Shown in pieces: positions 17,207-21,840 of a DNA stretch of 44,757 nt (position 1 is its first letter; every line of letters begins with the position of its first letter). The notes under the pieces are model-generated. The model saw only the letters and a program-made list of their open reading frames with translations. It was not told the DNA's origin and made no database searches. The translations under genes were made by a program, and so were the position numbers. This DNA comes from Deltaproteobacteria bacterium (GTDB lineage Bacteria > SAR324 > NAC60-12): NCBI GenBank assembly GCA_018645085.1, contig JABGPG010000238.1, forward strand, positions 11,699 through 56,455. Direction: 5' to 3'.

Positions 17207-17394
17207 TAGATCGTCCAGTTTGTCCTGTGAGGATGTGGCGTTCCCGGAGCGTAGTTATTCCGCCTATTCGAAAGAAAGTTGAAGTGAAATTTCCGGTCTG
17301 TTATCTGTTTCTGCTCAGTTCACTTCCATAAAAAGTTCATTATAATCCTCCTTTTTACCAGCCTTAATCAAAGTTGGAAATTTCATTAAACCTC

Positions 17395-18690
17395 ATGTCC
17401 AACTCTTCACAGACTTTCAGCAACTCACTTTTATCAGGACGCTGCCACGGACGCGTCCTCGAAGTTGTTTGCGGGAATGAGAAGTCGGAAGAGCCAACTT
17501 CCGAAAATCATAAAAACATTATTGTTTTAGTTAAAGACCAGTTGTATGCACTGAATTATCAAGGTGATACAGAACTCTCTGCAGGCTCTTTAATTTCATT
17601 TGAGCTTGGCGAAAATAGTGAAGTTGTAAAGCTGAAAACGGAAGGCCCCGCCGTCAATTTTGAGGCAGAAGGCGATTTACTGCGCTGGAGACGTCCGGCA
17701 ATTAATCCTTCTAGAATGAAACTTCTTCGGATTCGTCAGCAAATAATACATGGGATCAGGGAGTGGTTTGAACTGCAGGAATTTATTGAAACTGAAACTC
17801 CTTTACTGGTTTCCGCACCCAGTCCTGAGTCACAATTCTCACCCGTAAAAACTGATTCCGGATTTCTGATTACCTCTCCTGAGTTTCAGATGAAACGTTT
17901 GCTGGCAGGTGGTTTTGAAAAAATATACCAGCTCGCGCGTTGTTTCCGTAAAGCCGAAAGTGGTCCCCTGCACAATCCAGAATTTACCATGCTCGAATGG
18001 TATCGTAGCAATGAAGCACTGGAAGTTTTGATGTCGGATATTGAACAGCTGGTGCTGCATCTCAGCAAAACTATTACTGCGGAAAACTTTCCGGTGAAAA
18101 TTCCACTTCCGCCATGGCCACGTGTGACAGTCTGTTCTTTATTTAAAAAACATTTGAACATCATTTTGGACGGTTGCGAATCTGCCTCACAATTAAGGGA
18201 AAAAGCACAACTATCCGGACATGCGGAATTACTGGTTGATCTTGCAACAGAGCCAAACCTTACAGAATCACTGGCTTATGAACAAATATTTTTCCGGCTC
18301 TGGAATCATATCGAAGCGGAGTTTGCCGATTCTACTCCATTGTTTGTGTATGAATGGCCGTTACCGCTGGCAAGTCTAGCCCGGCCTTGTCCGCAACGTT
18401 CCGGGTTTGCTGAACGAGTTGAACTATATGTGGACGGTATGGAGTTGGCAAATGGATTTAGAGAATTGACAGATGCTGCCGAACAAAGACGACGCTTTGA
18501 ACAGGATTTGAAAAACAGGCTTTCTGAGGGACGCAGTTCTGTGCCCTTAGATGAAAAGTTTCTAAGATGTCTTGAGCAGGGTCTGCCTGAAAGTTCCGGA
18601 ATGGCAATGGGAGTTGACCGCTTGGTCATGTGGCTTTGCGGTGCAAAGCAGATTCGTGAAGTGCTGTGCTTTACTGAAGATGAAATATAA
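17395..18690 (+). CDS. epmA: EF-P lysine aminoacylase EpmA (GenX/PoxA) with N-terminal extension
   Basis: TSPEFQMKRLLAGG, HNPEFTMLEWY, ELANGF and GMAMGVDRL. Directly after efp. ATG at 17395 preferred over TTG at 17374. Confidence 0.88.
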   Translation: MSNSSQTFSNSLLSGRCHGRVLEVVCGNEKSEEPTSENHKNIIVLVKDQLYALNYQGDTELSAGSLISFELGENSEVVKLKTEGPAVNFEAEGDLLRWRRPAINPSRMKLLRIRQQIIHGIREWFELQEFIETETPLLVSAPSPESQFSPVKTDSGFLITSPEFQMKRLLAGGFEKIYQLARCFRKAESGPLHNPEFTMLEWYRSNEALEVLMSDIEQLVLHLSKTITAENFPVKIPLPPWPRVTVCSLFKKHLNIILDGCESASQLREKAQLSGHAELLVDLATEPNLTESLAYEQIFFRLWNHIEAEFADSTPLFVYEWPLPLASLARPCPQRSGFAERVELYVDGMELANGFRELTDAAEQRRRFEQDLKNRLSEGRSSVPLDEKFLRCLEQGLPESSGMAMGVDRLVMWLCGAKQIREVLCFTEDEI

Positions 18691-18757: not shown

Positions 18758-19075
18758 ATGGAACGCAGCATCATTCACATGATCCTCCACTTTTTGGTAC
18801 CTTTCATGGTTGCCAAAACTGCTTGGAAAGAAAACTGGTTACGCCCCTTTTTGATCATGGTGTTAACAATGGCAGTAGATTTGGATCACCTGCTGGCAGA
18901 CCCAATCTTCGATCCTAACCGTTGCGGTCTTGGTTTTCATCCTCTTCACAGTTGGCTGGCTATTGCAGTTTACTTCGCTCTTTTGTTTAGTCCACGTTTC
19001 CGGATTCCAGCTTTAGGTCTGCTGATTCACATGTTTTTGGACGGCACAGATTGTTTGTGGATGCTCTGGATGTGA
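18758..19075 (+). CDS. Small His-rich membrane protein (DUF6122-like)
   Basis: HFLVP, VDLDHLLADPIFDPNRC..GFHPLHS and HMFLD motifs. Hydrophobic. Confidence 0.7.
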   Translation: MERSIIHMILHFLVPFMVAKTAWKENWLRPFLIMVLTMAVDLDHLLADPIFDPNRCGLGFHPLHSWLAIAVYFALLFSPRFRIPALGLLIHMFLDGTDCLWMLWM

Positions 19076-19146: not shown

Positions 19147-19175
19147 TTGACAAGCTACTAGCACTCTTGTAAAGT
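19147..19175 (+). promoter_or_regulatory. Sigma70 promoter
   Basis: TTGACA (19147-19152), 17-nt spacer, TAAAGT (19170-19175). Confidence 0.75.
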
Positions 19176-19184
19176 GAGTGCTAA
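19158..19184. promoter_or_regulatory. CIRCE element (HrcA operator)
   Basis: CTAGCACTC-N9-GAGTGCTAA, one mismatch from the consensus TTAGCACTC-N9-GAGTGCTAA, overlapping the -10 box. Confidence 0.92.
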
Positions 19185-19313
19185 CAAATCATGAATTCAT
19201 GCTTCGGGTAGTCCAGCAGAGGGCGGAACGGTTTTTAGATTCGTCTGACAACTCAACGATTCAGGGCATTCGAAATTTAATTATCAACAACTTTTAATTA
19301 TTAAGAGGAAAAT

Positions 19314-19535
19314 ATGGCTAGAATGGCTAAAAAAGTAAAAGAAATTTCACACGAAGAAATCAGTGATGCAATGTCCCGCTTTCTTAACAAAGGTGGCGTG
19401 ATCAACAAGATCGAATACAATGACAACGGTTTTTTGTTGGGCAATGATCTTGCGTTAGATGATTCCTATACAGAAGCATCTGATACAGTCATGAGTCAGT
19501 TGCACATGGACTTTGAGCCGGAAACCCGGATCTGA
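19314..19535 (+). CDS. Small protein with SutA-like RNA-polymerase-binding motif
   Basis: RBS AAGAGG. DAMSRFLNKGGVINKI resembles the SutA core AMEEFLSRGGKVQEI. Acidic C-terminal half. Confidence 0.6.
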   Translation: MARMAKKVKEISHEEISDAMSRFLNKGGVINKIEYNDNGFLLGNDLALDDSYTEASDTVMSQLHMDFEPETRI

Positions 19536-19562: not shown

Positions 19563-19597
19563 TTTCGGGCGGATACTTCAAAATATCTGCCCCGAAA
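19563..19597 (+). terminator. GC-rich hairpin after the SutA-like gene (possible terminator between convergent genes)
   Basis: TTTCGGGCGGATA...TATCTGCCCCGAAA imperfect inverted repeat. The U-tract is imperfect. Confidence 0.5.
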
Positions 19598-20739: not shown

Positions 20740-21840
20740 TTAACGTCTTCTCCGTCCAAAACCTCCAAAGCCAAATCCCCTGCTGCGGCGTCTTCCGCCA
20801 AAACTGAATTTTTTCCTTGGTACAACTCTACGTTTTGAAACAGCGGGTTTTCTCTGTGATGTGCTACTGCCAAAACCTCCTCCGGCAGTTTTACGGTTGG
20901 TGGAGCGGAATTTTGTGCTCTTGATATTATTCAGGGATTTCTTTGAAGTTGAACGGAACTTGTTTGACGAGACACTTCTACCGCCGGCTGTCTTTGCGGA
21001 AGAAGATGAGGGCGTGGCCTTTTTCATTTTTGAAGTGGACGCTCCTCTGCGGTTTTGAATAGAACTAACTGACCTTGCTCCACCGTAACCGTAACCATAA
21101 CCTAATCCACCTCCCCAGATATATGGTGGTCTAAAGAGCATTGACATCATCATTGATGTCATTAAAAGATTCGTCATGCTGTAACCGGTACCATAATATG
21201 GAGCGTATGGAGCTCCGGCTGACTGGTACATCTGCGGATTAGGAGTAGACTGCAACTTCATCTCATCACCCGTACCACGTACAACGGAGGCAGTCATGAT
21301 TTCGATAGATTTATTTTCAGCAATATCTTTCCAGGCAGCTTGATCTGAGCCTGACGGCAATGTGCTAACTTGATCGGGATCCGGAACCAAAATTGAAAAT
21401 AACAGAAAATCCGCATCGCCTTTTTCGGTTTGAGGTACTATCAAAACATGATCCGCCATTCCATCCTGATTCAAATCGATTGTACTTATATCACGCACTT
21501 TGTTTGATATTTTGTTGACCAGAGTCGGTAGAAAATCTTTGTCAGAAACCTGAGCCTGTGACGTTTCTCTTAACGCTTCAGAGGTGATTGCAGGGATTAA
21601 TTTTGGATCCAGATGTTCCGTTAGATCAATGCCAAGTTTTTCGATAGCTTCCGCGTTAAGTTGATTGCTGACTCCAATTGGAATATTTTGGGAAGAATAA
21701 TTGTAGCGTGCGGATTCCTGACTTTTATCTTCTCCAAAAAATACCCAGTAAAATCCTAAGAACAGAATTGCGATGAGGATACCCTGCGTAGAAAACAATT
21801 TTTCTAAACCGTTAGGAGGTTCATTATCTTTGTTGGCCAT
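20740..21840 (-). CDS. Hypothetical membrane-anchored protein with DxNxDG loop and Ser/Arg/Gly-rich basic tail
   Basis: N-terminal TM helix, DLNQDGMAD, and a low-complexity C-terminus ending GGFGRRRR. 366-aa ORF. Confidence 0.75.
   Translation of the reverse strand: MANKDNEPPNGLEKLFSTQGILIAILFLGFYWVFFGEDKSQESARYNYSSQNIPIGVSNQLNAEAIEKLGIDLTEHLDPKLIPAITSEALRETSQAQVSDKDFLPTLVNKISNKVRDISTIDLNQDGMADHVLIVPQTEKGDADFLLFSILVPDPDQVSTLPSGSDQAAWKDIAENKSIEIMTASVVRGTGDEMKLQSTPNPQMYQSAGAPYAPYYGTGYSMTNLLMTSMMMSMLFRPPYIWGGGLGYGYGYGGARSVSSIQNRRGASTSKMKKATPSSSSAKTAGGRSVSSNKFRSTSKKSLNNIKSTKFRSTNRKTAGGGFGSSTSQRKPAVSKRRVVPRKKFSFGGRRRSRGFGFGGFGRRRR

Follow-up and report, generated by a model that had tools for sequence, protein, structure and literature searches.

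The locus

The window, by which we mean the whole stretch of 44,757 nt that was analyzed, corresponds to positions 11,699-56,455 of contig JABGPG010000238.1 in assembly GCA_018645085.1, from a Deltaproteobacteria bacterium (SAR324; NAC60-12). It contains a short reading frame that encodes a protein of 73 aa, MARMAKKVKEISHEEISDAMSRFLNKGGVINKIEYNDNGFLLGNDLALDDSYTEASDTVMSQLHMDFEPETRI, referred to below as the microprotein. Table 1 presents the positions of this gene, of the features around it and of the segments of its product. The upstream neighbor is a DUF6122 gene that ends at 19075, and the downstream neighbor is a TerB-like gene on the minus strand, convergent with the microprotein gene. The microprotein gene stands alone, as its own transcription unit.

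Table 1. Positions, within the window, of the microprotein gene, its control region and the segments that it encodes.
Feature	Position	Strand	Remarks
Sigma-70-type promoter	19147..19175	+	TTGACA 19147-19152, 17-nt spacer, TAAAGT 19170-19175; A-rich tract just upstream
CIRCE operator (candidate HrcA site)	19158..19184	.	CTAGCACTC-N9-GAGTGCTAA; covers the -10 hexamer
5' leader	19185..19313	+	about 125-130 nt; ends in AAGAGGA; variable except for the ribosome binding site
Ribosome binding site	19303-19309	+	AAGAGGA; 4 nt before the microprotein ATG
Microprotein CDS	19314..19535	+	ATG start, 73 aa; stop TGA 19533-19535
SutA-type RNAP-binding module (predicted)	19347..19415	+	residues 12-34: helix 13-25, G27-G28, strand-like VINKI
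Most constrained segment	19416..19463	+	residues 35-50, YNDNGFLLGNDLALDD; low pLDDT
Acidic C-terminal end	19464..19532	+	residues 51-73; short helix 56-62; terminal motif hydrophobic-D-[FY]-[ED]-x-[ED]
G+C-rich hairpin	19563..19597	.	about 28 nt past the stop, between the microprotein gene and the convergent TerB-like gene

The hairpin that follows the gene recurs at the corresponding position in 14 of 15 loci of the genus, with folding energies of -11.5 to -23.4 kcal/mol and with changes in the letters of the stem. It is a probable terminator that lacks a U-run on the plus strand; a scan with the terminator consensus found no canonical intrinsic terminator at this gene. An RNA thermometer or structured leader was considered and rejected, since no Rfam family matched in the leader, its predicted fold is no more stable than those of shuffled sequences (z = -0.87) and the leader is poorly conserved.

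Two other frames in the window may be recorded here. The first (20740-21840, minus strand) encodes 366 aa; a hydrophobic segment lies at the N-terminus, and the long basic C-terminus, rich in S, K, R and G, ends in GGRRRSRGFGFGGFGRRRR. The second (17374-18690, plus strand) is a class II tRNA-synthetase-like gene that adjoins efp and is EpmA-like by position. With its listed TTG start, about 110 residues precede the Pfam domain, which would mean that the protein is extended at its N-terminus or that the start has been placed too early.

Conservation, selection and presence in RNA libraries

The 73-codon frame is a real gene under selection. Eighty-eight genomes of the phylum were searched. Of the 18 that belong to the genus, 17, its own included, contain a full-length orthologue with an E-value of 1e-29 or better; the one genome in which none was found (G029) is 86% complete. 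The same search detected weaker full-length orthologues in the genera labeled g11, g8 and g12 (3/3 genomes each) and in g2 (1/2). A first protein search returned 264 related proteins, the close ones being named SAR324 cluster or Candidatus Lambdaproteobacteria, and many of the database relatives carry the precomputed label PF20661.3, to which we return below.

Selection was analyzed with 15 loci of the genus; L006 was excluded for its 99% identity to the window, and L007 for the N in its sequence. Among these loci the median pS was 0.68, compared with a median pN of 0.12. Of the 105 pairs, 72 gave a usable dS, with a median dN/dS of 0.079, and 31 were saturated. The reading frame is open at its full length in every orthologous locus. 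Nineteen RNA-registered runs hold the stretch (20 runs listed, from 17 studies), and in all four marine runs, from four studies, the frame is covered by metatranscriptome contigs, which report presence in RNA libraries and from which no level, transcript start or end, or induction can be read. Two details are hints only, given that contigs provide neither levels nor starts: in run X1 the contigs over the frame have depths of 258-396, compared with 106 and 23 alongside, and in run X4 a contig with a depth of 184.5 starts at 19197, just past the promoter.

It might be supposed that the frame is open by chance, or that it belongs to a non-coding leader behind the CIRCE-controlled promoter described in the next section, the true product being an RNA. 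The frame is indeed short, and the Rfam and fold scans are uninformative either way. This supposition is already refuted by the substitution pattern, with dN/dS near 0.08 at almost saturated synonymous change. The full-length open frame at all orthologous loci, the retention of the ribosome binding site in a leader that otherwise varies and the number of related proteins in the first search argue in the same direction, and we assign this possibility a negligible probability.

A conserved CIRCE operator over the promoter

The promoter agrees with the sigma-70 consensus at 10 of 12 positions. The consensus for CIRCE is TTAGCACTC-N9-GAGTGCTAA (PMC545781), and the site in the window departs from it by one mismatch. 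The sequence-only reading of this DNA had connected a CIRCE with the gene, and this CIRCE proved real. When the organism's own genome (3.1 Mb) was scanned, 5 sites with at most three mismatches were found, 4 of them with at most two, and a reversed control pattern gave 0. Because of this difference, together with the Pfam match described below (E = 4.1e-4) and the median dN/dS of 0.079, neither the operator nor the similarity of the protein can be attributed to chance. The four good sites precede clpB, hrcA, groES and the microprotein gene. The hrcA gene of this genome is a frame of 361 aa with an HrcA C-terminal domain (E = 3.3e-61), a DNA-binding domain and its own CIRCE upstream. Before clpB (L001:1470-1530) the operator lies over the promoter TTGCAA-17-TATAGT, and clpB and the microprotein gene agree both in operator sequence and in the placement of the operator over a sigma-70 -10 region.

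The operator is conserved across genera. Of 30 loci, 24 have a CIRCE with at most three mismatches immediately ahead of the orthologue, at a distance of 29-167 nt from its start codon (17 from the window's genus, g1, 3 from g12, 3 from g8 and 1 from g2); the sites in g8 are weaker, with three mismatches each. In the three loci of g11 (L022, L025 and L026) the CIRCE precedes hsp20, and about 90-120 nt separate the end of the Hsp20 gene from the microprotein gene. Hairpins, read by eye and not folded, lie between these two genes in two of the three loci, and co-transcription is therefore unsure there. The remaining three of the 30 loci, with no CIRCE, contain distant relatives that have in common only the RNA polymerase (RNAP)-binding domain (RBD). 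Within the 15 genus loci, the A-tract, the -35 hexamer, the operator and the -10 hexamer are nearly invariant, and the leader of about 130 nt drifts. Counts of CIRCE sites are 1-5 per genome in the genus and 1-10 in the family, compared with 0-2 for control patterns. The larger family genomes have 7-10 sites.

The textbook picture from Bacillus is that HrcA is released when chaperones are titrated. Since the -10 hexamer of the microprotein promoter lies inside the operator, HrcA should repress this promoter and stress should release it. The usual members of the CIRCE regulon are groESL and hrcA-grpE-dnaKJ, of which the groESL operon is the only constant one (PMC545781). The HrcA regulon of this SAR324 lineage seems to be enlarged, taking in clpB and, in g11, hsp20. 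No sigma-32 above the cut-off was found in 45 genomes of the family, 19 of them at least 90% complete, with a proteobacterial model that may miss a divergent sigma-32; the best matches to this model in the family genomes are frames of the size of RpoD.

The sequence-only reading had also presented a link from HrcA to a modulator of RNAP as not known to be described. To the extent that no predicted RNAP-binding microprotein was found in the literature as a member of an HrcA/CIRCE regulon, this statement holds. It needs to be qualified by the CIRCE that precedes rpoH in Geobacter sulfurreducens, the nearest precedent for a connection from HrcA to the transcription machinery (PMC545781). A search of the literature for SAR324 heat-shock metatranscriptomes, judged by titles and abstract openings, gave nothing related.

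A SutA-type module near the N-terminus

The sequence-only reading had singled out residues 15-33, EISDAMSRFLNKGGVINKI, and had compared them with the RNAP-binding helix of SutA from Pseudomonas. This comparison was borne out: the helix-Gly-Gly-strand segment is a SutA-RBD by profile, and binding to RNAP is predicted from this match. The sole Pfam match of the microprotein is to PF20661 (SutA-RBD), with 20.1 bits, residues 12-34 aligning to positions 6-28 of the 35 in the profile. This score is below the gathering cut-off, 29.3 bits, which is exceeded by five full-length orthologues or relatives, namely L022 (32.7), L023 (33.1), L024 (32.2), L025 (32.0) and L031 (31.4). At E<=0.01 the domain is matched in 20 of 23 orthologues, and in a wider set of 27 scanned proteins it is listed without exception.

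Comparisons with proteins of solved structure lead to the same family. With a profile built only from orthologues (A1), the first match in the PDB was a de novo designed protein (E = 0.042) and the second was SutA (E = 0.094). With a broader profile (A3), made from 31 small proteins in which the RBD comes first, SutA (7F0R, 7XL3 and 7XL4) was the top match among 177,635 PDB sequences (E = 5.9e-4), and all other matches had E-values of at least 0.1. The module aligns to residues 63-91 of the SutA chain, and the alignment obtained with A3 extends over SutA residues 59-87, which comprise the helix, two glycines and the strand; the likeness between the two proteins spans about 25 residues. AMEEFLSRGGKVQEI, the SutA motif that the earlier reading had cited, is part of chain 7f0r_G of the solved SutA structure, where it aligns with the module of the microprotein.

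In a study of SutA by He et al. 2022 (PMC9300723), ten residues are named at which changes impair binding to the beta-protrusion. Seven of these are identical in the microprotein (given as SutA/microprotein, K60/K9, M71/M20, F74/F23, L75/L24, G78/G27, G79/G28 and I84/I33) and three are conservatively replaced (R64/H13, with R in other genera, L67/I16 and V81/I30). A19, G27, G28 and I30 are invariant across 31 sequences. AF2, run on the orthologue alignment, predicts a confident helix at residues 13-25 (pLDDT about 81) and a short helix at 56-62, confidence being low elsewhere (mean pLDDT 60.9). The first 150 residues of SAR324 beta match Pseudomonas beta (7f0r_C) with E = 3.3e-46, ranked 11th. 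In 14 control genomes searched, no SutA was found over the cut-off, and a word-indexed protein search with A3 gave only SAR324 orthologues among the best 120 of 348 matches.

The N-terminus and the C-terminal part

The order of parts had been read correctly from the sequence: residues 1-11 are basic (net charge +3, with one acidic residue), residues 12-34 carry almost no net charge and residues 35-73, with nine D/E and one R, have a net charge of -8. In the other genera only 3-8 residues precede the module. Other claims of the sequence-only reading did not survive. It had assigned the microprotein to the SutA family proper, and this identity, like that of a SutA orthologue, is rejected: the NCBIfam equivalog for SutA (NF041490) gives 14.2 bits against a cut-off of 145 (E = 0.061), aligning only profile positions 64-91 of 109, and in place of the acidic N-terminal domain of SutA there is a short and basic N-terminus. 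Neither the D/E-rich N-terminal domain nor the wedge loop before the helix, the parts of SutA that serve activation, has a counterpart in the microprotein.

The same reading had supposed that the acidic region of SutA was moved to the C-terminus. No Pfam or NCBIfam model matches the microprotein past residue 36, and a loose acidic tail is ruled out as a description of residues 35-73 by the strong constraint on the segment that directly follows the module. For residues 35-50 pN is 0.026, compared with a pS of 0.80; in the RBD pN is 0.109 and in the N-terminus 0.22. N38 and N44 are invariant, and D37, G39, L42 and L46 are each present in at least 90% of 23 orthologues. Residues 35-50 are probably a second contact motif. 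The terminal motif also recurs across genera. Since constraint extends over the whole C-terminal part, the tail is likely to do something specific and not merely to be carried along.

That the strongest constraint falls outside the RBD means that the key activity may not be docking, and it raises the question of whether the microprotein acts on RNAP at all. It may instead be an accessory protein of the heat-shock response, one that binds a chaperone or protease (DnaK, ClpB, GroEL or Hsp20) or serves as an adaptor for damaged proteins. The helix-Gly-Gly-strand would then be a general docking unit, with residues 35-50 and the C-terminal motifs as the working parts. Consistent with this, the co-regulated genes are chaperone genes only, in g11 the gene lies directly behind hsp20, and the Pfam match of the window's own protein is sub-threshold. 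Against it, the SutA-RBD is the sole consistent family match (27/27 proteins, and 16/16 in the set of small proteins described below), the curated cut-off is passed by five orthologues, the ten experimentally defined RNAP-contact positions are all kept or conservatively replaced and no chaperone-binding family was matched in Pfam or NCBIfam. On balance we consider an accessory role unlikely.

Relatives, paralogues and a recurrent layout

The sequence-only reading had regarded the architecture as inverted relative to SutA. A search with the orthologue profile yielded only 58 cluster representatives at E<=0.001 out of 1.84 billion. Those beyond the orthologues are mostly 58-81 aa long, have the module close to the N-terminus and carry unrelated, often acidic, tails. 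All 16 of the small relatives that were scanned match the SutA-RBD of Pfam at E<=0.0032. RBD-first small proteins are thus common in metagenomes, so that the layout is not unique and represents a recurrent class rather than a single inversion. NCBI has a model for one such family, the PFL_1563 family small protein (NCBIfam NF058628). These proteins and the unnamed metagenomic ones resemble the microprotein in size (about 50-80 aa) and in having the motif near the N-terminus; their tails are variable, often acidic and unrelated to that of the microprotein. NF058628 itself scores 16 bits on the microprotein (cut-off 60, E = 0.0071) and 28 bits on the best of the relatives. The CIRCE link was seen only for orthologues of the microprotein and not for the PFL_1563 or metagenomic proteins, and no function or regulation of PFL_1563 was found in the literature.

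The organism's own genome encodes three more small RBD-like frames, all on the minus strand: L035:1360-1668, G000:C8:7472-7690 (L038) and G000:C48:5137-5403 (L039). Their E-values for the SutA-RBD are 4.5e-4, 0.026 and 0.12, respectively, their tails are quite different and one has a basic N-terminal stretch of 30 residues. Secondary matches in most genomes of the genus suggest that the three are conserved paralogues. The scan of this genome placed no CIRCE near any of them.

The paralogues bear on two further proposals. In the first, the microprotein would bind RNAP and act by occupancy and not by activation in the manner of SutA. The three paralogues or other protrusion binders would be its competitors for the beta-protrusion, and under stress it would displace these or damp housekeeping initiation. 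The existence of several RBD-like small proteins with different tails in one genome fits this proposal, as does the absence from the microprotein of the activating acidic N-terminal domain of SutA; SutA deprived of this domain still binds and no longer activates (PMC9300723). The strong constraint across the C-terminal part argues instead for a specific role of the tail. We regard action by occupancy as improbable. In the second proposal, SAR324 would possess three or four paralogous microproteins with a common beta-protrusion anchor and differing tails, which would serve as exchangeable polymerase modules, the HrcA-controlled one reprogramming global transcription during proteotoxic stress. 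This more far-reaching idea is speculative and, in our estimation, unlikely to be correct; if it were, the heat-shock response would be acting on the core enzyme and not via an alternative sigma factor.

Several observations concern the wider distribution of the motif. Viral contigs of IMG/VR encode proteins with the same helix-Gly-Gly-strand (L073:3830-4159 and L083:1142-1540, both on the plus strand). One viral-contig frame with the motif is small and lies just ahead of a gene like that for the terminase large subunit; another encodes a protein of 132 aa with the motif at its very C-terminus, ahead of a nuclease-like gene. These could be phage binders of RNAP, or they could be a sign of a general docking unit. 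A search of the ESM Atlas gave only unnamed clusters, and the label "Viruses" in these, with 3-4 members behind it, carries no weight here. A hypothetical protein of Herbaspirillum sp. HC18 (P0133, 874 aa) consists in part of seven tandem repeats that match the orthologue profile (E = 2.8e-14) over the RBD and the NG...L..DY part behind it; the Pfam SutA-RBD gave no match in this protein. The appearance of RBD-like motifs in proteins as unlike the microprotein as these indicates that the motif may be a more general docking unit, and to that extent it favors the accessory role considered in the preceding section.

Comparison with SutA and other RNAP-associated factors

The comparison with SutA (P. 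aeruginosa, 105 aa; PDB 7XL3, 7XL4 and 7F0R) is instructive both for what is common and for what is not. The common module consists of an amphipathic helix, two glycines and a short strand. Both proteins are small and acidic overall, and SutA is a factor for times of stress. By NMR, SutA has one helix and flexible tails (10.1101/423384), a description that the AF2 prediction for the microprotein resembles. The module is N-terminal in the microprotein and in the middle in SutA. Only SutA has the D/E-rich N-terminal domain and the wedge loop, which are needed for activation (PMC9300723), and only the microprotein has the C-terminal 39 residues, which lack a counterpart in the SutA models. Regulation differs as well: HrcA and CIRCE would control the microprotein gene, whereas sutA is controlled by RpoD, FliA, RpoS and Lrp (10.64898/2026.06.26.734693). 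Finally, the microprotein belongs to SAR324, whereas homologues of SutA are reported from most organisms of the Pseudomonadales-Oceanospirillales clade (10.1101/423384). A literature search for SutA-RBD or SutA-like proteins gave nothing beyond SutA itself; supplementary alignments might list more distant homologues.

An anchor on RNAP combined with a flexible acidic segment, which can mimic nucleic acid, is also found in the delta subunit (RpoE) of Firmicutes RNAP and in region 1.1 of sigma-70. In delta the anchor comes first and the acidic tail last, as in the microprotein. The tail of delta is much longer and of low complexity, and that of the microprotein is short and bears motifs. We know of no relation in sequence or fold between the microprotein and either delta or region 1.1.

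Proposed mechanism

Of the readings considered, the best explanation in our judgment, held with somewhat better than even confidence, is that of a SutA-type module under HrcA control that docks on the beta-protrusion and works via its C-terminal tail. According to this model, residues 9-34, approximately, would form the helix, Gly-Gly and short strand with which SutA clamps the beta-protrusion of RNAP. A short basic stretch would precede this module, and an acidic, largely unstructured segment of 39 residues with two conserved motifs would follow it. HrcA would repress the microprotein promoter until proteotoxic or heat stress released it, together with groESL, hrcA-grpE and clpB, and with hsp20 in some genera.

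The microprotein would then dock on the beta-protrusion. For SutA, PMC9300723 describes the residues that follow the strand as running over the protrusion towards sigma region 3.1, and those that precede the helix as entering the gap between lobe and protrusion and the main cleft. The tail of the microprotein would leave from the C-terminal end of the module, so that the C-terminal motifs would face another side of the holoenzyme. From the position of this tail behind the module we infer that it reaches a different face than does the tail of SutA. Initiation would therefore be tuned in a manner unlike that of SutA's wedge.

Implications

As a whole, these results point to a microprotein with a SutA-RBD, predicted to bind RNAP, that would have its regulatory segment behind the anchor and would belong to the HrcA regulon of a marine phylum in which no sigma-32 was found. 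They suggest that SAR324 bacteria adjust RNAP directly under protein-damaging stress. SutA has so far been a single studied case; it is described as confined to one clade of gammaproteobacteria and is connected with nutrient limitation. If the microprotein does bind RNAP, several consequences follow. First, the docking module of SutA would be an old and portable anchor, used in a distant phylum that is very abundant in the ocean. Second, with the tail on the other side of this anchor, nature would offer a test of how tail position sets the effect on initiation. The parts are small and amenable to work in E. coli or in vitro, with no need for the cultivation of SAR324. Third, the chaperone-titration circuit of HrcA would have a direct input to the transcription machinery of a lineage in which the search for sigma-32 gave no match above the cut-off.
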